Assembly: GCA_031384385.1 (NCBI GenBank)
Contig: JANNAN010000007.1
Coordinates: 10,236 to 74,235 of the forward strand
Length of the DNA stretch: 64,000 bases
Direction of reading: 5' to 3'
DNA from: Candidatus Tayloriibacteriota bacterium
GTDB lineage: Bacteria > Patescibacteriota > Minisyncoccia > Phycocordibacterales > PALSA-1337
Shown: piece after piece, positions 34,741 through 46,200 of the stretch
Layout of the letters: each line of letters starts with the position of its first letter
How positions within the stretch are numbered: the stretch's first letter is position 1
Translations under genes and position numbers: made by a program
The notes under the pieces: model-generated
What the model was told of the DNA's origin: nothing
The model's input: only the letters and a program-made list of their open reading frames with translations
The model's database searches: none

Positions 34741-34823
34741 GTTTGAATACATTGATTGACTGGATGTATCCAAACATGTATACTTTGAATACATTATAAA
34801 AAAGATGTATACAAACATGAATT
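34741..34823. repeat. 42-bp direct repeat x2 (TTTGAATACATT-N8-GATGTATnCAAACATG) in the divergent promoter region, extending over the Fic start codon
   Basis: Unit 1 at 34741-34782 and unit 2 at 34783-34823. Both carry short TGTAT/ATACA inverted elements. Confidence 0.5.
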
Positions 34824-35959
34824 CTATCCAAATTGGCGAACTAAAAGAGCAGAAAGAAGGCTTCAAAGCTTTCATCCCAGGATCTTTTCCTCCGAAAGGC
34901 GGCTTTGAATTTGACCCTAAAATCGTAAAGAAAAGCGATGAGGCTACCCGTTTGCTCGGAAAGCTCGACGGCATCACTAAGCTTTTGCCAGATGCAGATT
35001 TTTTCTTGCTTATGTACTTGAGAAAAGATGCTGCATCATCAAGTCAGATCGAGGGTACAATGGCAACAATGGTTGATGCTATTGAAGCTGAAGTTCAGTC
35101 AAGCACAAAGATTCCGGAAGATGTAGATGATATTTTGCATTACATTAAAGCACTCAATTATGGAATGGAGCGGGTACAACAGGACAATTTTCCTATCTCG
35201 CTGAGGTTCATTCGAGAGCTACATAAGCAATTGATGGATAAGGCGCGCACTACACACTTCTCAGACCCAGGTGAGTTTAGGAAAACTCAAAACTGGATTG
35301 GTGGCACTCGTCCCGACAATGCTCGATTTGTTCCTCCACCGGTTGATGACATGAATAATGCACTGACTGATCTGGAAAAGTTCATGCACACTGACGATCC
35401 GACACTTACTTTGATCAAAGCGGCTCTTGTTCATGCCCAGTTTGAAACTATTCACCCGTTTCTAGATGGAAATGGCAGGACGGGCCGTATGCTTATAACC
35501 TTTTATTTATGGAAGGAAGGTTATCTCGAAAGACCGGTATTGTTTTTGTCATCCTTCTTTAAGAAGCACCAAAAAGTGTACTACGAGAGACTCTTCGGCT
35601 ATCACTTTGGTAATGCCGCGGAATGGGTTGATTTCTTTCTCGACGGCGTAATAGAGATCGCGAATGAAGCAATTGAAATTGTTTCGAAGATAACCGCACT
35701 CCGTGAAAAGGATGTCGTGAAGATACAGACGCTCGGTAAACGTGCTTCAGAAAGTGCGGTCCTTGTGCTGCCTAAATTGTATGGACAGCCAATTGTAAAT
35801 GTCTCCTTGATTCAAAAATGGACAGGGTTTAATCGTGCCGCATCTCAAACTGTAATCAAACGCTTTATAGACATGGGTATTCTTACTCCTAAGGATAAAG
35901 ATAAGAAGTATGGCAAATCATACATATACAAGAAATATGTAGATATTTTCTCTGAATAA
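34805..35959 (+). CDS. Fic/Doc-family protein (AMPylator-type Fido domain) with a C-terminal winged-helix
   Basis: Canonical Fic motif HPFLDGNGRTGRML. The start may instead be the ATG at 34817. Confidence 0.85.
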   Translation: MYTNMNSIQIGELKEQKEGFKAFIPGSFPPKGGFEFDPKIVKKSDEATRLLGKLDGITKLLPDADFFLLMYLRKDAASSSQIEGTMATMVDAIEAEVQSSTKIPEDVDDILHYIKALNYGMERVQQDNFPISLRFIRELHKQLMDKARTTHFSDPGEFRKTQNWIGGTRPDNARFVPPPVDDMNNALTDLEKFMHTDDPTLTLIKAALVHAQFETIHPFLDGNGRTGRMLITFYLWKEGYLERPVLFLSSFFKKHQKVYYERLFGYHFGNAAEWVDFFLDGVIEIANEAIEIVSKITALREKDVVKIQTLGKRASESAVLVLPKLYGQPIVNVSLIQKWTGFNRAASQTVIKRFIDMGILTPKDKDKKYGKSYIYKKYVDIFSE

Positions 35960-35964
35960 AATCT

Positions 35965-36153
35965 ATGAATCCCGTTGCAAACCAAAACCAAAAAGAAACC
36001 TATATCAAGTGCAGGAAATGCGGCACTGAGGTTTTTACCATTACAAATGGTGGTTTAATTCCATGTAAATGCGGTGCTATTTCCGTTGATGGCTCTACAG
36101 ACCTCGTGAGGGTACTTGGTAATCCCGAGGACTACGAGGAAATACAAAAATAA
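35965..36153 (+). CDS. Small zinc-ribbon protein (62 aa)
   Basis: CRKCG...CKCG. Lies between Fic and the RM gene. Confidence 0.35.
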   Translation: MNPVANQNQKETYIKCRKCGTEVFTITNGGLIPCKCGAISVDGSTDLVRVLGNPEDYEEIQK

Positions 36154-36157
36154 TTAT

Positions 36158-38833
36158 ATGAATCCTGTCGAACTTCAAGAAAATTTAGAGGATCTAACTG
36201 AAAACCTTTCGCGAGAAACGTTTATTTTTGAATTGTTGACAGCATACAGGTTGCCAAAAAGCACAGTCAGTCTTCTTAAGAAGAGTCCTTCTAAGTTATC
36301 TGGAAATAACAATCAAATTATTTTAAAAAATAAGGTCCTATTTCAAGCAACTACAATTGAGGAAGATGAGCATATTGTTATAGATAATCTCCAAAAAGAC
36401 AAAAATACATTTAGATACAACCCGAGATTTTTGATTGTTACTGATTTTCAAACATTACTTGCAGTAGATACCAAAACAAAAGAGACCCTAGATATCAAAA
36501 TAAATGACTTAGGGAGATACTATACCTTTTTCTTACCATGGGCAGGAATGGAGAAGGCACAACACGTAAACGAAAATCCTGCGGATATTCGTGCCGCAAG
36601 CAAGATGGCTAAGCTGTATGATCAAATAATAAAGGATAATCCCAATCACACTGAAAACGGACTCTATGATTTAAATGTTTTCCTATCACGGCTACTTTTT
36701 TGTTTTTTTGCTGAAGATACGGGGATATTCAAAAAGGGATTATTTACAAATTCGATTGATTCCAACACTCAAATATCAGGAGACGGCATTGGTGATTATT
36801 TCGACTCACTTTTTGATGTTTTAAATACAAAAGATACAGAGAGGTCGTCTTTTGCACATCATTTTACAGAATTTCCATATGTAAACGGCGGGCTGTTTGA
36901 AAAAAAGATCAAACTACCTATTTTTACTGCTAACTCACGTAGATTGATAATTGAGTGTGGGAAACTAGGTTGGGATGCTATCAATCCTGATATCTTCGGA
37001 TCAATGATCCAAGCGGTGGTTCATCCTGGTCAAAGAGAGAATCTGGGAATGCACTACACTTCTGTTCCGAATATAATGAAAGTCATTGAACCTCTTTTTC
37101 TAAATGATTTATATGATGAACTAGAAAATTCAAAAGATGATATTAAAAAACTAACAAAGCTACGAGAGCGTATATCAAAGATTAAAATATTTGATCCTGC
37201 TTGTGGCTCCGGTAATTTCCTGATTATTTCATATAAGGAATTATCAAAATTAGAATCAAAAATAATTGGTTGTGCTAAGGACATAGGACATCAAATGATG
37301 CCCTATTCAGGTGTGTCTCTAAACTCTTTTTATGGAATAGAGATAGATGATTTTGCACACGAGATTGCAAGGCTTTCATTGTGGCTTGCTCAGCACCAGA
37401 TGAATACCTATTTTGATGATCTGTTTGGAATGATGAAACCTACACTACCCCTCAAAGAGAGCGGAATAATTGTATGTAAAAATGCTGCAAGGATTGACTG
37501 GAATGTAGTGTGTCCTCGCATTGATTATAAAAATGAGAAATTTGAAATTTATATGGTCGGTAACCCACCATATCTAGGGTTCTTGCAACAGAAAGCTGAA
37601 CAAAAAAAAGACATGGATTTAGTTTTACCATTGGTTAATGGATATAGAAAACTAGATTACATCTCTTGCTGGTTCTATAAAGCAGCAGAATACATCTCAG
37701 AATCATTTGATATAAAAATTGCCTTTGTATCAACTAATTCGACTTCGCAAGGAGAACAGGCCTCTATTTTCTGGCCTGAAATATTCAAAATGAATGTCGA
37801 AATATTCTTCGCATACCAATCATTTAAATGGCAGAATAATGCCAAAAATAATGCTGGCGTTACCTGTGTGATTATTGGCTTGAGGAAAGTATCAAGTAAA
37901 CCAAAGTATTTATATGTTGATAATTTAAAAACTAGCGCAACAAATATAAACGCTTACTTAGCAAATTCAAGTAATGTCGTTGTTACCAAGAGAACAAAAC
38001 CGCTTTCAAATCTACCAACCATGGATCTTGGTAGTGCGGCGTATGATGGAGGTTACTTGATGCTTACTCAGGAAGAACGCAACGCCTTTATCAGTAATTC
38101 ACCTAAATCAGAGGATTTCATTAAACCTTTCATGGGATCAGCGGAGTTTATACGAAACATAAAAAGATATTGTATTTGGATTGAAGATAAAGATTCAGTT
38201 GAGGCAACTAAAATTCCAGATATTAAAAATAGATTAGAAATAGTAAAACTTTTTAGAGAAAAAAGCGGAAGAGGAAAAACACTTGAGACTGCTGAGACCC
38301 CCTATAAATTTACAGAAATAAGATATAAAAAAGCTCCAGCAATTATTGCACCGATCATTTCTTCTGAGACAAGAGAATATATACCTTTTGGTTTTATAAA
38401 GGAGGGTATCGTTGTGCCAAATTCAGCAAGAATTATATATAATTCTGAACCTCATATTTTTGCAATCATAACTTCTAGAATGCATATGGTATGGGTCCGC
38501 GCTGTTGCGGGCAGATTAAAAACTGATATTAGATACTCAGGAACGATTTGCTATAACACCTTTCCGTTTCCCTCAATTACTCTTCAACAAAAAGAAGAAC
38601 TTACTGGCCATGTTTACAATATCTTAGGTGAGCGAGAAAAATATCCCAATAGAACAATGGCAGAACTCTATGATCCAGATAAGATGCCAGATGGATTAAA
38701 AGTTGCGCATAAATATCTCGATACAGCAATTGACCAAATATATAGAAGTAAACCATTTGAAAATGACGAGAGCCGACTGTCGCATCTATTTAAACTCTAC
38801 GAAGAAATGATTATTAATGAAACAAACCAATAA
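36158..38833 (+). CDS. MmeI-like Type IIL/IIG restriction-modification fusion enzyme: N-terminal putative PD-DxK nuclease, gamma-class N6-adenine methyltransferase and a C-terminal target-recognition region
   Basis: MTase motif I KIFDPACGSGNFLI and motif IV VGNPPYLG. The YVNGGLF helical-domain motif is present. N-terminal D...VDTK is a possible PD-(D/E)xK. About 890 aa. ATG 36158 is preferred over the TTG-extended ORF at 36116. Confidence 0.7.
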   Translation: MNPVELQENLEDLTENLSRETFIFELLTAYRLPKSTVSLLKKSPSKLSGNNNQIILKNKVLFQATTIEEDEHIVIDNLQKDKNTFRYNPRFLIVTDFQTLLAVDTKTKETLDIKINDLGRYYTFFLPWAGMEKAQHVNENPADIRAASKMAKLYDQIIKDNPNHTENGLYDLNVFLSRLLFCFFAEDTGIFKKGLFTNSIDSNTQISGDGIGDYFDSLFDVLNTKDTERSSFAHHFTEFPYVNGGLFEKKIKLPIFTANSRRLIIECGKLGWDAINPDIFGSMIQAVVHPGQRENLGMHYTSVPNIMKVIEPLFLNDLYDELENSKDDIKKLTKLRERISKIKIFDPACGSGNFLIISYKELSKLESKIIGCAKDIGHQMMPYSGVSLNSFYGIEIDDFAHEIARLSLWLAQHQMNTYFDDLFGMMKPTLPLKESGIIVCKNAARIDWNVVCPRIDYKNEKFEIYMVGNPPYLGFLQQKAEQKKDMDLVLPLVNGYRKLDYISCWFYKAAEYISESFDIKIAFVSTNSTSQGEQASIFWPEIFKMNVEIFFAYQSFKWQNNAKNNAGVTCVIIGLRKVSSKPKYLYVDNLKTSATNINAYLANSSNVVVTKRTKPLSNLPTMDLGSAAYDGGYLMLTQEERNAFISNSPKSEDFIKPFMGSAEFIRNIKRYCIWIEDKDSVEATKIPDIKNRLEIVKLFREKSGRGKTLETAETPYKFTEIRYKKAPAIIAPIISSETREYIPFGFIKEGIVVPNSARIIYNSEPHIFAIITSRMHMVWVRAVAGRLKTDIRYSGTICYNTFPFPSITLQQKEELTGHVYNILGEREKYPNRTMAELYDPDKMPDGLKVAHKYLDTAIDQIYRSKPFENDESRLSHLFKLYEEMIINETNQ

Positions 38834-40784
38834 ATTCATGAAAACAATTCAAGTAGCGGAAGCTACATACAAACAAACCGGAGAAAGTACAAAAATAAAT
38901 GAACTTGGAATGCGCGAAATGCAGGCTAAAGCATTTGAAAAACGTACTGCTCAATACCTACTTTTAAAAGCACCTCCAGCTTCAGGAAAGTCTCGTGCGC
39001 TGATGTTCCTTGCACTCGATAAGTTACAGAATCAAAATATCAAAAAAGTTATTGTTGCTGTTCCAGAAAAAACAATTGGTGGATCTTTCAGTGATACAAA
39101 TCTCAAAACTGAAGGTTTCTTTGCTGACTGGAAATTAAATGACGATTATAACTTGTGTACGCCAGGTACCGATGGTAGCAGTAGCAAGGTCCAAGCCTTT
39201 AAAAACTTTATGGACAATAACGAGAAGGTTCTTGTTTGCACCCACGCAACTTTGAGATTTGCCTGCGAACAGATCGAGGATTCAAAATTTAATGATACTT
39301 TGATTGCTATTGATGAATTTCACCATGTCTCTGCGGACAAAGAGAGTAGTACGCTTGGGCGCGTTTTACATGGAATAATGACTAATTCAAGTGCTCACGT
39401 GATTGCAATGACAGGATCTTATTTTAGAGGTGATGGTGTGGCGGTCCTATTACCTCAGGATGAAGAAAAATTTACAAAAGTTACGTATAACTATTACCAG
39501 CAACTCAACGGATATAATTTTTTGAAGTCGCTTGGTATCGGGTACCATTTTTATCAAGGTAAATATACATCAGCAATCAGTGAGGTTCTTGATACAAACA
39601 AAAAAACGATACTACATATTCCAAATGTTAATTCAGGTGAATCAACAAAAGATAAACTAAACGAGGTCGATCTTATTTTAGATATTATTGGCGAAGTAGA
39701 TCATCAAGATCATGATACTGGGGTTATTTACGTAAAAAGAGACGGAGACAGCAAGATATTAAAAGTCGCTAACCTTGTGGATGATTCTGTAGACCGTGAA
39801 AAAATATCAGGATATCTAAGGACAATGAAGAAGGAAGACGACATGGACATTATTATTGCACTTGGTATGGCAAAGGAAGGTTTTGATTGGCCATACTGTG
39901 AGCACGCTCTTACTGTCGGCTACCGAAGCTCTTTAACAGAGATCATTCAAATAATCGGTCGCTGCACTCGTGATAGTTCAAATAAGACACATGCTCAATT
40001 TACAAATCTTATTGCTCAGCCAGACGCACAAGATAGTCAGGTAAAGATATCAGTCAACAATATGCTTAAGGCAATTACATGCTCGCTACTCATGGAGCAA
40101 GTAATGGCCCCTCATTACAATTTTAAACCAAAGTTTCCGAATGACGGTACCGACTTTATCCCTGGTGAAATAAAAATAAATGGATTTAAAGAGCCGAGTT
40201 CAGACAGAGTAAGAGAAATTATTGAATCAGATATCAATGATCTCAAGGCTTCAATTTTACAGGACGACCAGATCGTAAGAGCCCTTCCTGGTAATGTTGA
40301 TCCAGAAGTTATAAACAAAGTAATGATCCCAAAGATTATTCGGATCAAGTACCCTGATCTGAGTGATCTTGAGGTTGAAGAAGTGAGACAGCATGTAGTT
40401 GTTGATTCTGTAATCAAGAATGGCGAAATAAAAGAAATCGGAGATAAACGTTTTGTTAGAATGGCAGGACAATTTGTAAATATTGATGAACTTAACATAG
40501 ACCTTATCGATAGGATAAACCCATTCCAGGAAGCCTTTGAGATACTTTCAAAATCAGTCACATCAAATATACTAAAAGTCATTCAGGATACAATCGACTC
40601 ATCAAGAATTGAAATGACTCCTGAGGAGGTTAGAATCCTATGGCCTAAGGCGAAAGAGTTTAAAGAAAGAACTGGTCGAGTCCCAGAACTTAACTCTGCG
40701 GACCCTCTGGAAAAGCGTTTAGCAGAGGCGTTGGTATACTTGAGAAAGATAAAAGTTGAACAAGCAAACAATAAGCATGAGTAA
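38817..40784 (+). CDS. SF2 DExH-box helicase (restriction Res-subunit-like ATPase) lacking its own nuclease domain
   Basis: Walker A APPASGKSRA, DExH box AIDEFHHV and motif VI QIIGRCTRD. The start overlaps the upstream gene by 17 nt (alternative ATG at 38838). Confidence 0.8.
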   Translation: MKQTNKFMKTIQVAEATYKQTGESTKINELGMREMQAKAFEKRTAQYLLLKAPPASGKSRALMFLALDKLQNQNIKKVIVAVPEKTIGGSFSDTNLKTEGFFADWKLNDDYNLCTPGTDGSSSKVQAFKNFMDNNEKVLVCTHATLRFACEQIEDSKFNDTLIAIDEFHHVSADKESSTLGRVLHGIMTNSSAHVIAMTGSYFRGDGVAVLLPQDEEKFTKVTYNYYQQLNGYNFLKSLGIGYHFYQGKYTSAISEVLDTNKKTILHIPNVNSGESTKDKLNEVDLILDIIGEVDHQDHDTGVIYVKRDGDSKILKVANLVDDSVDREKISGYLRTMKKEDDMDIIIALGMAKEGFDWPYCEHALTVGYRSSLTEIIQIIGRCTRDSSNKTHAQFTNLIAQPDAQDSQVKISVNNMLKAITCSLLMEQVMAPHYNFKPKFPNDGTDFIPGEIKINGFKEPSSDRVREIIESDINDLKASILQDDQIVRALPGNVDPEVINKVMIPKIIRIKYPDLSDLEVEEVRQHVVVDSVIKNGEIKEIGDKRFVRMAGQFVNIDELNIDLIDRINPFQEAFEILSKSVTSNILKVIQDTIDSSRIEMTPEEVRILWPKAKEFKERTGRVPELNSADPLEKRLAEALVYLRKIKVEQANNKHE

Positions 40785-41925
40785 CGATAATTTATTAGAT
40801 TTGATAAATGACGATGATTCCGGACTTCTTGATATTAAAGAGAAGGCTATTTCTATCACCCCAGACGATCGATTATTAGAATCATTTATGGAGATTAATG
40901 ACTTTTTTAAAACTCATAACTCAGAGCCAAAATCTGGTGGTGATATTCACGAGCACAAGCTTTCTTCAAGGTTGAAACATATCAGGGAAAATAAAGATCT
41001 CAAAGAATTTTTATCGAAGTATGATACATATAAACTATTAGCCGTAAGTACTAAGAATTTAGAGACCGTTAGTGATATCTTTGAAGATGATAGTCTTGGC
41101 CTGCTATCAGTTGAAGATACGTCAATTTTTAACATAACAAATGTTCCTGAAGTAGACAAAGATCGTTCGGATCCCGATTTTATTGCCAAGAGAGAAAGAG
41201 TTGTTGATTTTGAAAAATATAAGCATTTGTTTGATCAGTGTCAGAGAGAACTAAAAAACGGAACTAAAAAAATATCAAGTTTTGTTGAGGGTGAAATGAA
41301 AAAAGGTGACTTCTTTGTTTTAAGTGGAGTACTTGTGTATCTTGAGGACATCTTCAACCCTTACAGAGGTAATAGTCAGAAAATAAACCGAAGAACAAGA
41401 TGTATTTATGAAAACGGCACAGAATCAAATGTCTTACTGAGATCTCTTGGAAAGAGACTGTCTGAAGTCGGATATGCTGTTAAGGACAACGACCCGATGC
41501 CTGAAATTGATACCGACGATAAAGAAACTGGATATATTTATGTTTTAAAATCACTCAGTATGGATCCTAGAATTAATAGTACAAGAAATCTTTTTAAGAT
41601 TGGTTTTTCTACCATAACCGTTGAAGAAAGAATTAAAAATGCTGATCAGGATCCTACTTATCTTATGGCACCTGTTTCTATTGTGGCAACCTATAGGTGC
41701 TTTAACATGAACCCTCAAAGACTTGAAAGATTACTTCACCGATTCTTTACTGACTCATGTCTTGATATCGAAATAACTGATAAAAGCGGAAATAAATATA
41801 CTCCCAAGGAATGGTTCGTAGCGCCGATTGTTGTTGTCGAGAAAGTTATAGACCTAATCATAAAGGGAGATATCGTTAATTATGTATATGACAAAAGTAC
41901 TGAAAAAGTCATTTTAAATCAATAA
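40777..41925 (+). CDS. T5orf172/MUG113-type (GIY-YIG superfamily) domain protein
   Basis: GYIYVLKS...(17 aa)...KIGFSTITVEERI matches the T5orf172 pattern GyvYvl...KIGxT...R. The ATG overlaps the helicase stop (ATGAGTAA). The six-frame ORF is extended to 40756 by TTG. Confidence 0.55.
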   Translation: MSNDNLLDLINDDDSGLLDIKEKAISITPDDRLLESFMEINDFFKTHNSEPKSGGDIHEHKLSSRLKHIRENKDLKEFLSKYDTYKLLAVSTKNLETVSDIFEDDSLGLLSVEDTSIFNITNVPEVDKDRSDPDFIAKRERVVDFEKYKHLFDQCQRELKNGTKKISSFVEGEMKKGDFFVLSGVLVYLEDIFNPYRGNSQKINRRTRCIYENGTESNVLLRSLGKRLSEVGYAVKDNDPMPEIDTDDKETGYIYVLKSLSMDPRINSTRNLFKIGFSTITVEERIKNADQDPTYLMAPVSIVATYRCFNMNPQRLERLLHRFFTDSCLDIEITDKSGNKYTPKEWFVAPIVVVEKVIDLIIKGDIVNYVYDKSTEKVILNQ

Positions 41926-41928
41926 AGA

Positions 41929-42654
41929 TTGTTCATGAAAAATATAGAAGAAGGACTCAAAGAGATCTACGAAAATATAAGAAAATTAGAATCCTTAATA
42001 AATACTAAAAATGATCTTACTAGGATACATAAGGACAATGTATTTAATAGGAGATTTTCTGTTGTTCTCAGTGATTTTTCTGATCTTGAAACTATAGGAA
42101 TGAGACTTAATAAAAACATACCTGAAGTTGAGACTTTACAGAGGATTATACAAAAACGCTTCAAGTCCGAAGATAAGGACAGAATTACAGATGAAGGTCA
42201 AAGACTGCACCAAGAATCGGATAAGATTAATCGAGAAAATCAGGTAGATTTCAAATGTTTATATATTTTTTCAAAGATATTTCTTGATCAATATACTACT
42301 CTAATCAAATTATTATTTAATTGGCGAGGTATTGGCGACAAGTCAATTACAAGTTTTTATAATAGCCTAGAAAAATATAAAGGAGAGGAAGAACAGATCA
42401 TTTCTTTTAAAGATAGTTGCTTAAAAAGACTTAAAGCAATTGATGTTTTTGTAACAGAATACCGTGATCAATATGTTGTGCATGATCAAACTAAACATAA
42501 AGATACAAGATGGTTTTTAAATGATATGACGGGCAGTGTTAGATTTATTGGTGGTAGGCCATCAATAACACCACAGGAGTTGGTTTTTGTTGTTTCTAAT
42601 TATATTAAGGACTCCGTCACCTTTATAAAAGATCAAGAAAGCACCCTGAATTAG
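41929..42654 (+). CDS. Hypothetical protein (241 aa), last gene of the four-gene cluster
   Basis: Starts 4 nt after the T5orf172 gene on the same strand. No recognisable motifs. Confidence 0.5.
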   Translation: MFMKNIEEGLKEIYENIRKLESLINTKNDLTRIHKDNVFNRRFSVVLSDFSDLETIGMRLNKNIPEVETLQRIIQKRFKSEDKDRITDEGQRLHQESDKINRENQVDFKCLYIFSKIFLDQYTTLIKLLFNWRGIGDKSITSFYNSLEKYKGEEEQIISFKDSCLKRLKAIDVFVTEYRDQYVVHDQTKHKDTRWFLNDMTGSVRFIGGRPSITPQELVFVVSNYIKDSVTFIKDQESTLN

Positions 42655-42759: not shown

Positions 42760-43140
42760 GTCCTGGGAAATTGATTGCACACACTTTTCAACATTTTTAG
42801 CGCCTCATACTATGTGGGTCCAGTAAAAAAGTAGAAATTGACTCCGCACGATTTTCCACGTTTTTACCAGGACATACTTATAGGATCCAAAGAGATAAAA
42901 GTAATTCCTACAGTTAGGAACTTTATACACCTTAGGATAAACCCATAATCTTAGGCCTAAAAAGTAATGCACCATATTTTGCATTTTTTAGAGCCTAGGA
43001 TTAAGTAGTTCTCTGGTCCGAAGTAATTCCTGCAATTAGTGAATTACAAGACCTCAGAATAGACAAATCGGATGACCCAAAAGTAATGCACGTAATTTTG
43101 CATTAAATAAGGTCTACGATACATACATTCCCATTGCACG
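42760..43140. repeat. About six degenerate tandem repeats of ~65 bp (GGRTCC..AAAAGTAR..ATT..GCAC..TTTT..AGGNCT), iteron-like
   Basis: Units begin near 42760, 42819, 42886, 42953, 43016 and 43073. Examples: TAATGCACCATATTTTGCATTTTTTAGAGCCTAGGA vs TAATGCACGTAATTTTGCATTAAATAAGGTCTACGA. Confidence 0.6.
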
Positions 43141-43185: not shown

Positions 43186-43510
43186 TTCAAAAAGAGCCAG
43201 CTCGATAAAGGTCGAAAGAAAAACCCTCATGCTTACCAAACACGCACTAGAAGAATACAAAGAAATACATCGCCAGGAAACCGGCGCGGTTTTTCCTGAT
43301 GACGTGTTGGCTAATGAGGCAATTAACTTGCTTACTCTTTTTAACTTTGTCTATCGACCGATCAAAAAAGAGTGGCTGAAAGAATATGGACGACAAAATA
43401 AATCTAAACGAGGAATGGCAGAGAATTCTCAGTCAGAAGAACAAATCGCCGAAACGAGTGGCGAAGTTCGAAGAATTCAAAAAGACCCATCTCGAACAAA
43501 CCAGGAGTGA
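43163..43510 (+). CDS. Small hypothetical protein (115 aa). Overlaps the next ORF in another frame, so possibly not real.
   Basis: ORF only. The start lies inside the hairpin element. Confidence 0.25.
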   Translation: MGTQLFLFSKRASSIKVERKTLMLTKHALEEYKEIHRQETGAVFPDDVLANEAINLLTLFNFVYRPIKKEWLKEYGRQNKSKRGMAENSQSEEQIAETSGEVRRIQKDPSRTNQE

Positions 43511-44375
43511 AATAAATCCGGACACACTTCGCAGTAAGAAAAAGCCTAACAGGTTTGTTGTCGATAACGAGTATGTCAAAGGTTATTATCTGGCGAAATT
43601 TCCACCGGTCTGTTCCCAGGTGCTTTTGACGTTACTTGTCCACTGCAATCTCAATAGACAGGATGCGTTTCCGAGCATTGTCACTATTCAAGAACTCTCC
43701 GGATGTACCAACACTCGAAGTGTCATTAGTGCTCTTAGGATTCTTGAGGCCTACGGGATAATTAACATTCGTCGGTCCAAGAGAGGGGTAAAAGCAGTGA
43801 ATGTCTATTTCTTTCAGTCGGTCCGACATTGGAGACCACTCTCAAAGAGCATGAAAAAGATTAAGCTCACCGATCCATTACCGCAATGGCAAAATCCCGT
43901 CCAGAGCACTGGCAGAAAACAGACCTATCGTACTGGCCCTACTGCCAGTCTAACTAACCTAAGAGAAAACTATAATAATAAAATACAAAATATTGGAGAT
44001 ATTTTAAGGGAAAGATTCAAAATGCCAGAAGACCCGTCTAAGGTTGCTATTCCTACACCTTCTAGCAATACTGTCGTCGATGACAAAAAGGCAGAAGACA
44101 TGGAACCTGATACGCCTGTTAGAACAGGTGAAAAACAAGGGTATCGTACTGGCACTAATGCCACTACGATTGATACCCGTAATAACGGGAAATTAACGGG
44201 AACCGAAAGTCAGAGACATGGCATGTCATCAGCCGTTTATAAACGGGAAATAACGGTCGAAAAACCTCCCGAGGATCCATTTGTAAATGGTGAAAAATGG
44301 ACTAAGGAAGATGAGGGTATCGGTCTGATGAATATCAACAATGAAGATATCGGACCAGGAAGCGCAACATTATAA
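43386..44375 (+). CDS. Winged-helix DNA-binding protein, plasmid/phage replication-initiator-like (Rep-type HTH)
   Basis: LLTLLVHCNLNRQDAFPSIVTIQELSGCTNTRSVISALRILEAYGIINIRR is a typical replication-protein winged-helix. C-terminal repeated ...TGxKQxYRTG... motifs. Located downstream of the iteron-like array. Confidence 0.5.
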   Translation: MDDKINLNEEWQRILSQKNKSPKRVAKFEEFKKTHLEQTRSEINPDTLRSKKKPNRFVVDNEYVKGYYLAKFPPVCSQVLLTLLVHCNLNRQDAFPSIVTIQELSGCTNTRSVISALRILEAYGIINIRRSKRGVKAVNVYFFQSVRHWRPLSKSMKKIKLTDPLPQWQNPVQSTGRKQTYRTGPTASLTNLRENYNNKIQNIGDILRERFKMPEDPSKVAIPTPSSNTVVDDKKAEDMEPDTPVRTGEKQGYRTGTNATTIDTRNNGKLTGTESQRHGMSSAVYKREITVEKPPEDPFVNGEKWTKEDEGIGLMNINNEDIGPGSATL

Positions 44376-44380
44376 AAACT

Positions 44381-46042
44381 ATGAATAATAAAATACCCAC
44401 AATCAAATACTTCCTCTACGCTAGAAAATCTAGTGAAGCGGAAGACAGACAAGCGGCATCAATCGATGCCCAGAAAGATGAACTCTTAAAGATTGCACAA
44501 GAGCAAGGTTTAACCATTGTTGAGATTCTTACCGAATCACAGTCAGCTAAGAAACCAGGAAGACCGATATTCAACAAGATGCTTGAGCGAATCTACAAAG
44601 GCGAAGCAAATGGAATCATTTGTTGGAAGTTGGACCGACTTGCTCGTAACCCAGTAGATGGCGGGCAGATAAGCTGGATGTTACAGCAGAGTGCGATCGC
44701 ACAGATCGTTACGTTCGGCCGAACATACTATCCGACTGATAACGTTCTCATGATGCAGGTTGAGCTTGGAATGGCGAATCAATACATCCGAGACTTGTCG
44801 GTAAACGTAAAGCGAGGACTGGCAAAGAAGGTCCGAGAAGGCTGGCTACCAAGTATGTGTCCAGTCGGGTACATGAGTACACCTGACAGAGAAAAGGGAT
44901 TCAAGACAATCATGAAGGACCCTGATAGATTTCCTGTAGTAAAAAGATTGTTCGATTTAATGCTCAGTGGTAATTACAGCACCTGCCAAATATGGGACGT
45001 GGCTCGTAAGGAGTTGAATCTGAAAACATATCAGCGCAGACATATGGGTGGCAAACATCTTTCCAAAAGTGGTATCTATGCACTCTTGAGCAATCCTTTC
45101 TACTACGGCTGGTTTGAATATCCCTACAAGAGCGGAGAATGGCACAAAGGTGCGCATGAGGCCATGATCACCGAAGAAGAATTCAACAAGGTCCAGATCA
45201 TTATGGGTAGGACTATGCAACCTCGGCCAAGACCAGAGCGCAACTTTGCATTTACTTCACTCATGAAATGTGGCACGTGTGGCTGTAGCATTACTGCTCA
45301 GGCGAAAGTAAAACGCCAGAAGAACGGCAACGTCCACCACTACGTTTATTACAATTGCACCAAGAAAAAAGTAGACGTGAAGTGTCCCGAGCAATGTCTC
45401 GAACTCAAGAACCTCGAACTAGATATCAAAGGCAAGCTAAGCGAGATCACTATTTCAGAAAGATTCAAAGACTGGGCGATCAAGCACCTCCATGAACTCC
45501 GAAAGACGGAAGTCGATAGCGACACCTTGGTCTTTAAGGGCAAACACAAAGAGCTTGAGGAGGTAACAAAGAATTTGCAGTCACTCACGCTCAACTTCAC
45601 CTCACCTAAAAACAGCGAAAGAGCGATAATTACAGACGAAGAATACCAAACTCTCAAAGTTGGAATGGTGAAAAAGAAATTGATCCTCGAAGACGAACTG
45701 AAAGTAAAAAATAAAGAGGTTTTGGAATGGATAGACCTCACCGAGCAGACCTTTGACTTTGCCTGCTATGCCCACATTTGGTTTGAAAAAGGAGACGATA
45801 AAGCCAAAAGAGCGATACTTGCATGTTTAGGCTCGAACCTCACCCTAAAAGGCAAAAAGGTCTTTGTAAATTACCATTCTTTCGTAAAGACACTCATAAA
45901 AAGTCGTCAGGCGGTTGAAGACGAATTAGAGAAGGTTAGAACCTCCAAAGTATCAAGCAATAAAAGACAAAACCCCACAAATTGTGAGGTTTCGTCACTA
46001 GGGCTCCGGCGGCAGGGATCGAACCTGCGACCTTTCCGTTAA
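44381..46042 (+). CDS. Large serine recombinase (integrase). The 3' end overlaps tRNA-Asn on the opposite strand.
   Basis: N-terminal resolvase domain YARKSSEAEDRQAASIDAQ (Ser nucleophile region), a recombinase domain, a zinc ribbon (CGTCGC...YYNCTKKK..C..C) and a C-terminal coiled-coil. 553 aa. Confidence 0.85.
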   Translation: MNNKIPTIKYFLYARKSSEAEDRQAASIDAQKDELLKIAQEQGLTIVEILTESQSAKKPGRPIFNKMLERIYKGEANGIICWKLDRLARNPVDGGQISWMLQQSAIAQIVTFGRTYYPTDNVLMMQVELGMANQYIRDLSVNVKRGLAKKVREGWLPSMCPVGYMSTPDREKGFKTIMKDPDRFPVVKRLFDLMLSGNYSTCQIWDVARKELNLKTYQRRHMGGKHLSKSGIYALLSNPFYYGWFEYPYKSGEWHKGAHEAMITEEEFNKVQIIMGRTMQPRPRPERNFAFTSLMKCGTCGCSITAQAKVKRQKNGNVHHYVYYNCTKKKVDVKCPEQCLELKNLELDIKGKLSEITISERFKDWAIKHLHELRKTEVDSDTLVFKGKHKELEEVTKNLQSLTLNFTSPKNSERAIITDEEYQTLKVGMVKKKLILEDELKVKNKEVLEWIDLTEQTFDFACYAHIWFEKGDDKAKRAILACLGSNLTLKGKKVFVNYHSFVKTLIKSRQAVEDELEKVRTSKVSSNKRQNPTNCEVSSLGLRRQGSNLRPFR

Positions 46043-46075
46043 CAGCGGATTGCTCTACCTCTGAGCTACACCGGA
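46004..46075 (-). tRNA. tRNA-Asn (anticodon GTT)
   Basis: Manual fold on the minus strand: 7-bp acceptor stem (one G-U pair), D arm GCTC-AGAGGTA-GAGC, anticodon loop CTGTTAA, 5-nt variable loop, T arm GCAGG-TTCGATC-CCTGC, discriminator G. No encoded CCA. Confidence 0.8.
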
Positions 46076-46200
46076 ATGTGTATTAATTTCGTTCCTTTTG
46101 TTAAGAACATAAGTATACTATCAGATATATATATAAAAGTGAAGATAAAATAGATTATTATAAATAATAATAAAAGATTATTTGAGCTAGATTTTAAACA

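Follow-up and report, generated by a model that had tools for sequence, protein, structure and literature searches.

Gene organization of the locus

The 64,000-nt stretch of DNA analyzed here, from contig JANNAN010000007.1 of a Candidatus Tayloriibacteriota bacterium and hereafter called the window, carries a close-packed series of genes encoding an MmeI-like methyltransferase (MTase; g1), a superfamily 2 (SF2) helicase (g2), a protein with a T5orf172/GIY-YIG nuclease domain (g3), and a fourth protein, g4. In the initial annotation, these genes were described as a four-gene cluster and as a candidate for an undescribed defense system resembling restriction-modification (R-M). The four open reading frames (ORFs) are indeed present on the + strand, but the series is not limited to four, as a Fic/DOC-family gene and a small DUF7695 gene extend it upstream to a block of six co-directional genes, with gaps of 5 nt between Fic and DUF7695 and of 4 nt between DUF7695 and g1 (Table 1). 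Only three of the six, g1 to g3, constitute a conserved unit, referred to below as the triad.

The tight junctions first described for the cluster were also confirmed. The g1 stop codon (TAA, 38831-38833) falls between two possible g2 starts, so that g1 and g2 either overlap by 17 nt or are 4 nt apart; g2 homologues, together with the database entry P0035, start at the position equal to 38838, 4 nt past the g1 stop. The g2 stop and the g3 ATG both lie within ATGAGTAA (40777-40784), and g4 starts 3 or 9 nt past the g3 stop, depending on whether TTG 41929 or position 41935 is used. A promoter scan of the block found promoter-like sites no more commonly than in shuffled sequence, and a terminator scan found no + strand terminator within it, a result that is compatible with co-transcription and otherwise uninformative. 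Finally, all of the protein motifs initially quoted for the cluster were verified by translation, namely FDPACGSGNFLI, NPPY, PPASGKS, DEFHH, QIIGRCTR, GYIY, and KIG.

Table 1. Genes, motifs, and other features of the locus, in coordinates of the window.
Feature	Coordinates	Strand	Description
g1	36158-38833	+	891 aa; YeeA/DnmA-type MmeI homologue: gamma-class N6-adenine MTase with fused target recognition domain (TRD) and C-terminal helical domain
g1 N-terminal segment, aa 1-86	36158-36415	+	Stands in place of the MmeI-family PD-ExK core
g1 MTase motif I, FDPACGSGNFLI	37190-37225	+	S-adenosylmethionine (AdoMet) binding; from translation; invariant in alignment of helicase-linked homologues
g1 MTase motif IV, NPPY	37562-37573	+	Catalytic; from translation; invariant in alignment of helicase-linked homologues
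g2	38838-40784	+	648 aa; YeeB-type SF2 helicase
g2 alternative start	38817	+	In-frame ATG, giving 655 aa
g3	40777-41925	+	382 aa; YeeC-type protein with C-terminal T5orf172/GIY-YIG nuclease domain
g4	41935-42654	+	239 aa; all-helical, no family match; passenger gene
g4 alternative start	41929	+	TTG
Fic/DOC-family gene	34805-35959	+	Pfam Fic_N and Fic
DUF7695 gene	35965-36153	+	Small, Cys-rich; Pfam DUF7695; 4 nt 5′ of g1
HTH_36/replication-initiator-like gene	43386-44375	+	Pfam HTH_36; PHROG replication initiation protein
Large serine recombinase	44381-46042	+	Pfam Resolvase/Recombinase/Zn_ribbon_recom; 3′ end runs into tRNA-Asn
tRNA-Asn(GTT)	46001-46076	-	ARAGORN

Conservation of the triad

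A scan of one genome per species returned at least 588 genomes with a relative, and the best 80 of these were taken as a census. These 80 span Patescibacteria, Bacteroidota, Planctomycetota, Chlamydiota, Spirochaetota, Campylobacterota, Actinomycetota, Bacillota, Melainabacteria, Verrucomicrobiota, and Pseudomonadota. A g3 homologue lies directly 3′ of the helicase and on the same strand in every one of the 72 census loci with enough downstream DNA, at gaps of -10 to +98 nt, while an MmeI-like gene lies 5′ of the helicase on the same strand in 63 of the 64 loci with at least 2.9 kb of upstream DNA. Both counts bear out the early view that an MTase/specificity subunit is accompanied here by a separate helicase and a separate GIY-YIG-superfamily protein. 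Moreover, the helicase and T5orf172 genes did not recur as a pair devoid of an MTase, a pattern that the initial annotation held would make them a system of their own; the upstream MmeI-like gene is present in all but the one locus. By the same census, a g4 homologue was found in none of the 80 triad loci.

The g1, g2, and g3 proteins are each collinear with their homologues. Identity to the window proteins is 40-61% for the MTase (lowest in the TRD, at about 45%) and 33-73% for g3, and it is highest for the helicase, at 56-88%. That the TRD is the most divergent part is as expected if the specificities differ. The triad is also carried on plasmids of Bacillus, Niallia, Paenarthrobacter, Proteus, Acinetobacter, and Providencia, where its genes are annotated as ‘DNA methyltransferase’, ‘DEAD/DEAH box helicase’, and ‘GIY-YIG nuclease family protein’. 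In three contexts from the candidate phyla radiation (CPR), a helix-turn-helix (HTH) gene, the MmeI-like gene, the helicase gene, and the T5orf172 gene are followed by a convergent serine recombinase gene.

Several side observations concern how the triad is embedded. In eight CPR/Patescibacteria loci (L001-L008), an HTH_3-type, controller-like gene precedes the triad at the position held by DUF7695 in the window, and a convergent serine recombinase gene follows it, overlapping the T5orf172 gene by about 11 nt; this arrangement suggests a compact mobile cassette. Searched for with the recombinase of the window, it did not turn up in the 80 genome loci. A serine recombinase was considered as an obligate partner of the triad and rejected, the window-type recombinase being absent from 80/80 genome loci. 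Only one informative locus, L096 (68-3922), has no MmeI-like gene in the 6 kb 5′ of its helicase; in its place are a 1284-aa protein without a Pfam match and, after it, RhuM-like and Schlafen-like ORFs. This could be a variant that relies on another specificity or modification partner, or its MTase could lie further upstream.

The MTase-helicase junction behaves as an insertion hotspot for accessory defense-type genes. Extra genes amounting to 0.5-5.7 kb lie between MTase and helicase in 24 of the 63 triad loci, and they include RhuM, PDDEXK_3, Abi_C, three Fic/DOC genes (in L041, L074, and L075), Schlafen/AlbA_2 with HATPase_c_4, and an extra DEAD helicase. Loci listed with such inserts are L031, L038, L040-L044, L048, L050, L054, L055, L062, L073-L075, L077, and L078, as well as L082, L086, L088, L092, L095, and L108. 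The helicase-T5orf172 junction is never interrupted in triad loci.

Gene 1, an MmeI-like methyltransferase without the nuclease motif

The g1 product matches all five MmeI domains of Pfam (MmeI_N, MmeI_hel, MmeI_Mtase, MmeI_TRD, and MmeI_C), with the MmeI_N model covering residues 1-159, and it is labeled REase_MTase_IIG by PADLOC, at 1000 bits. Its initial assignment as a gamma-class N6-adenine MTase is confirmed by motifs FDPACGSGNFLI and NPPY. The accompanying claim of an MmeI-like R-M fusion was not sustained, as g1 has no PD-ExK motif. Residues 87-884 of g1 align to residues 106-902 of MmeI (phmmer against PDB 5HR4, E 1.6e-177), and with a profile built from six helicase-linked homologues the match to MmeI likewise begins only at residue 103; the catalytic residues of MmeI are D70, E80, and K82 (PMC4833311; PMC2731913). 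The N-terminal ‘D...DTK’ (IVTDFQTLLAVDTK), which had been read as the sign of a single-chain MmeI-type enzyme, pairs with MmeI 113-123, outside the catalytic motif.

A comparison set of four plasmid-borne, stand-alone MmeI-family enzymes, whose tblastn matches to g1 start near residue 57-89, further illustrates the difference. No helicase or GIY-YIG gene occurs among their neighbors. The classical GxIDxFWxG...xExK is present in three of the four enzymes, and the fourth has a shortened form. When aligned with these, g1 and five other helicase-linked homologues have a hydrophobic stretch (‘QIIL’) at the position of the Asp and are missing the 12 alignment columns that hold ExK, the segment reading ‘QIIL----KNKV’. 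Within aa 1-90, the alignment of helicase-linked homologues has no acidic position that is invariant, and the divergent MTases of L104, L105, and L107 also have the YeeA-type N-terminus without D..ExK. The N-terminal segment of g1 is 70% identical to its CPR homologues, versus 45% for the TRD. These roughly 86 residues are presumed to be a docking domain for the helicase and nuclease subunits, a role with which the conservation of the replacement N-terminus is consistent.

Fragments of such nuclease-motif-less proteins are labeled ‘type IIL restriction-modification enzyme MmeI’ by PGAP (L021 4734-6005; L022 5505-5996; L025 4471-4998), and several plasmid copies are split or shortened by IS26 or frameshifts. 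Together with the PADLOC ‘Type IIG’ label, these names wrongly imply an autonomous restriction enzyme, and this is likely an annotation error that the present analysis corrects.

The helicase and the GIY-YIG protein

The early description of g2 as an SF2 helicase without a recognizable nuclease was upheld. Its Pfam matches are ResIII/DEAD/Helicase_C only, no nuclease domain was found in it by Pfam, PADLOC, or NCBIfam, and PADLOC returned only weak, partial matches (PbeA, Cas3). Helicase motifs I (PPASGKS, 38973-38993), II (DEFHH, 39312-39326), III (MTGS), and VI (QIIGRCTR, 39948-39971; QIIGRxTR in the family) are present and invariant across phyla in the alignment of g2 homologues, and the C-terminal ~230 aa are conserved without a domain match. 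More than 8000 relatives of g2 occur in the databases, many of them 80-90% identical in Patescibacteria. No close solved structure was found, the best PDB E-value being 0.016. As a side observation, the helicase is unusually conserved, at 60-88% identity across more than 10 phyla, which is above the conservation of the catalytic domain of the partner MTase.

The g3 protein proved to be a T5orf172 protein, as first proposed, with Pfam matches to T5orf172 and MUG113 that both lie in its C-terminal third. It begins with a helical module, which is followed by a disordered linker and a small beta-barrel, and ends in the T5orf172/GIY-YIG nuclease domain; the C-terminus matches the GIY-YIG fold of SLX1. 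Invariant residues include G252, I254, Y255, K274-I275-G276, R285, E317, H321, and E345. PADLOC gave only a weak, partial match (PDC-S57). A T5orf172 protein of phage ICP1, Gp88 (Odn), has been described as a nuclease (PMC8263062).

Gene 4 and other passenger genes

The suggestion that g4 belongs to a four-gene system, or is a conserved fourth subunit of the triad, was rejected; it is absent from 80/80 related loci, as well as from the plasmid and CPR triad loci, and its homologues occur in unrelated contexts. There are 34 of them. Those in L009 and L013-L016 belong to other integrative elements, which carry serine recombinases and unrelated methylases, and those in L010-L012 are paired with an unknown 301-aa protein beside a Peptidase_S24 gene. 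The closest relative (78%) stands last in a Type III-like operon (L017), after the HTH, Mod, Res, and PD-ExK genes. The DNA similarity between the window and L017 (78.6% identity; L017 5752-6471) begins exactly at the g4 ATG, from which it follows that g4 moves as a discrete cassette.

By sequence, g4 has no match in Pfam, PADLOC, NCBIfam, or PHROG. The family is characterized by an invariant R177-x5-H183, and the AlphaFold2 model is all-helical, with a predicted local distance difference test score of 89.7. A Foldseek search with the model gave no significant structural match, only weak, non-specific matches to generic helical bundles, and with regard to HEPN-domain RNases, whose marks are a four-helix up-and-down bundle and a conserved Rx4-6H, g4 has its invariant Rx5H but matched no HEPN Pfam model.

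The genes g4, Fic, and DUF7695 are independent passenger genes and not subunits, and all three fit the class of genes lodged in triad operons elsewhere. Passengers of this sort are common within and next to R-M operons. It is conceivable, albeit doubtful, that g4 (Rx5H, possibly HEPN-like) is a portable accessory effector that docks at the 3′ end of unrelated restriction operons, namely the triad in the window and the Type III-like operon of L017, and adds an abortive-infection or back-up layer when restriction fails. Upstream, Fic and DUF7695 might then act as accessory effectors in much the same way. Were the idea of a portable effector true, 34805-42654 would be a composite of several layers and no longer a simple R-M system.

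Relationship to known systems

In work on MmeI, Morgan et al. (2009) distinguished two sets of MmeI homologues, the second of which has no PD-ExK motif, differs in the first ~100 residues, and is ‘invariably’ accompanied by flanking genes for a DEAD helicase resembling YeeB and for a protein with GIY-YIG motifs resembling YeeC (PMC2731913). In their proposal, specificity and single-strand modification come from the MmeI-like subunit, and the cutting from the helicase and nuclease subunits (PMC2731913). A member of this set, dnmA-yeeB-yeeC, has been studied in B. subtilis (Nye et al. 2020 and Fernandez et al. 2023; PMC7261158, PMC9973331). DnmA is an N6-methyladenine (m6A) MTase that acts at a non-palindromic site (PMC7261158), and the sequence methylated is GACGAG. 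In V. crassostreae, inactivation of yeeAB led to loss of resistance to one phage group (Piel et al., bioRxiv 10.1101/2021.05.05.442762).

By the loss of the motif from g1 and by its YeeB-like and YeeC-like neighbors, g1 to g3 match the definition that Morgan et al. gave for this second group. As in that group, g1 is homologous to MmeI over all but roughly the first 100 residues, and a DEAD/SF2 helicase gene lies 3′ of the MTase gene, followed by a GIY-YIG/T5orf172 gene. Matched to the B. subtilis genes by architecture and published description, and by homologues on Bacillus and Niallia plasmids, g1 to g3 are thus probably a full-length, motif-intact YeeA(DnmA)-YeeB-YeeC member and a three-subunit, Type I/ISP-like R-M system, residing on a serine-recombinase island at tRNA-Asn. 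The claim of an undescribed system does not hold, as the same architecture and mechanistic idea appear in Morgan et al. (PMC2731913) and in the later B. subtilis and Vibrio work. What stands of the claimed novelty is that PADLOC-DB v2 has no dedicated model for the triad; NCBIfam and PHROGs likewise have none for g2, g3, and g4.

The gene order and domain content of g1 to g3 are, by description, identical to those of B. subtilis DnmA-YeeB-YeeC and V. crassostreae yeeAB. Like the B. subtilis locus, the window locus has close-coupled genes on horizontally acquired DNA with serine recombinases nearby (yefB/yefC in B. subtilis). It differs from the B. subtilis and Vibrio loci in its low-GC host, its closest relatives being in Patescibacteria, and in the TRD of g1, so that the recognition site is presumably different. 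It further departs from its relatives in having DUF7695 in place of the upstream HTH gene, as well as the additional Fic and g4 passengers.

Like MmeI, to which it is homologous from residue ~103 to the C-terminus (595 bits), g1 has a helical spacer, a gamma-MTase, a TRD, and a C-terminal bundle, and it probably modifies a single strand at an asymmetric site. Unlike MmeI and other Type IIL/IIG enzymes, it has no catalytic D...ExK and does have obligate helicase and GIY-YIG neighbors, and the system is presumably ATP dependent, cleaving via another subunit. Like the Type ISP enzymes LlaGI and LlaBIII, the triad combines nuclease, SF2 helicase, gamma-MTase, and TRD functions and would use hemimethylated asymmetric sites, and among the related forms named by the authors of the Type ISP work are relatives that have helicase subunits and GIY-YIG nucleases (PMC3553950). 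However, a Type ISP enzyme is one polypeptide with an Mrr-type PD-(D/E)XK nuclease, whereas the window system consists of three polypeptides with a GIY-YIG nuclease, and g2 belongs to a different, structurally uncharacterized SF2 family.

As in Type I and Type III systems, modification and ATP-dependent restriction reside in different subunits, and the MTase/specificity subunit is probably needed for restriction, in keeping with the term ‘Type I-like’ (PMC7261158). In contrast to both, the R function is split into helicase and nuclease, and the nuclease is GIY-YIG and not PD-(D/E)XK. There is no separate HsdS, unlike in Type I, and unlike in Type III, g1 is a gamma-class, MmeI-type protein and not a beta-class Mod, while g2 is not a nuclease-fused Res. 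Finally, membership in DISARM, BREX, MADS, Pbe, Dnd, or Cas3 systems was considered and rejected on finding partial-domain matches only. No DrmA/DrmB/DrmC or PglZ/BrxC occurs among the neighbors, and g1 has only partial, MTase-domain matches to DrmMI and PglX.

Proposed mechanism and alternatives

By analogy with MmeI and B. subtilis DnmA, g1 would recognize a short asymmetric site through its fused TRD and methylate one adenine (m6A) on one strand, thereby marking the host DNA. Following loss of the PD-ExK motif, its replacement N-terminal domain may recruit the other two subunits. At an unmethylated site, the g2 helicase, judging from motifs I, II, III, and VI, would use ATP to translocate or switch along the DNA, and the GIY-YIG/T5orf172 domain of g3, with its conserved catalytic-type residues, would then cut it. 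Such a split, ATP-dependent, Type I/ISP-like restriction system is the most likely and best-supported model, although we infer every step past methylation.

Several points weigh against this restriction model. YeeA alone has no endonuclease activity (PMC2731913), and no member of the family is known to cleave DNA. In B. subtilis the locus, described by its authors as a relic, does not restrict plasmid transformation and gives no protection from three phages; phage genomes, moreover, do not avoid the DnmA site. The Vibrio evidence concerns only yeeA and yeeB, and methylation-dependent discrimination of self from non-self is not established by it. Lastly, no function is assigned to the C-terminal third of g2 or to the first 240 aa of g3, and the roles could therefore be divided otherwise than proposed.

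One alternative is that only g1 is functional, as an orphan MTase with an epigenetic or regulatory m6A role such as has been proposed for B. subtilis DnmA, and that the helicase and GIY-YIG genes are decaying remnants. The absence of restriction and phage defense by B. subtilis dnmA-yeeB-yeeC, together with the effect of DnmA on gene expression, speaks for such a role. In the window, however, g1 to g3 are full length with every catalytic-type motif intact, the helicase is very strongly constrained across phyla, and the triad is kept together in the 63/64 and 72/72 loci given above. The locus also lies on a recently mobile island. According to the mBio authors, B. subtilis YeeB and YeeC are without stretches found in the active Vibrio proteins. 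Hence, an orphan role seems unlikely for the window copy.

A composite four- or six-gene system, in which g4 and perhaps Fic/DUF7695 are a required subunit or a coupled second-line effector, appears improbable. It is opposed by the absence of g4 from the census, plasmid, and CPR loci, by the occurrence of most g4 homologues in contexts without a triad, and by the failure of Foldseek and the HEPN Pfam models to give g4 a significant match.

It is equally conceivable, and held to be quite as improbable, that the triad does not cleave, acting instead as a BREX/DISARM-like block of replication or as an addiction or maintenance module of the island, with the GIY-YIG domain in another role. The partial similarity of g1 to the DrmMI and PglX methyltransferases, the frequent link of the triad with plasmids and islands, and, for the family as a whole, the want of a demonstrated cleavage and the persistence of DnmA sites in phage genomes would all agree with this. 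Nevertheless, the neighborhood holds none of the BREX/DISARM signature genes (PglZ, BrxC, DrmA/B/C), and the GIY-YIG catalytic-type residues are invariant.

Least credible is an MmeI-type fusion in which g1 cuts by itself and the helicase and T5orf172 genes (with or without g4) are an add-on or a separate system, for despite the MmeI_N match on residues 1-159 and the Type IIG/‘type IIL’ labels, the equivalents of D70/E80/K82 are absent, YeeA and a second member of the group showed no endonuclease activity when expressed (PMC2731913), an MmeI-like gene is missing from the 6 kb 5′ of the helicase/T5orf172 pair in 1/64 informative loci only, and motif-bearing, stand-alone MmeI enzymes have no such neighbors.

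The mobile island

The mobile-element setting proposed for the cluster is corroborated by the Rep-like HTH_36 gene, the large serine recombinase, the tRNA-Asn, and a shift in GC content, which is raised between about 30 and 46 kb and falls to the right of tRNA-Asn. Integration probably took place at the tRNA-Asn gene, which would mark the right edge of the island. A search for attachment (att) sites found no direct repeat of tRNA-Asn of at least 16 nt, and the left border of the island was not found.

The recombinase ORF reads through the terminator hairpin of tRNA-Asn (45966-45996, - strand) and into the 3′ end of the tRNA gene. The same recombinase/tRNA-Asn overlap occurs in L009 (2201-3784), a different island at the same tRNA-Asn/S30AE site that carries a g4 homologue, which points to a family of tRNA-Asn-targeting, serine-recombinase islands. 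In addition, the ~500-nt gap between g4 and the HTH_36 gene contains two copies of a 55-nt element (42947-43001 and 43066-43120), 71% identical and each with an internal inverted repeat. These could serve the integrative element as an iteron/origin or as an operator.

Biological significance

The locus adds a member to a known, mechanistically little-understood family and is not a new system. The window copy adds no new principle, and the open question is no more testable with it than with many other copies. The YeeABC-type family is very widespread, being found in at least 588 species-level genomes and on many plasmids, yet its mechanism has never been reconstituted, and the best-studied copy, that of B. 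subtilis, appears to be inactive. For the biochemistry still missing, a mobile-island copy that is full length and motif-intact makes a reasonable candidate.

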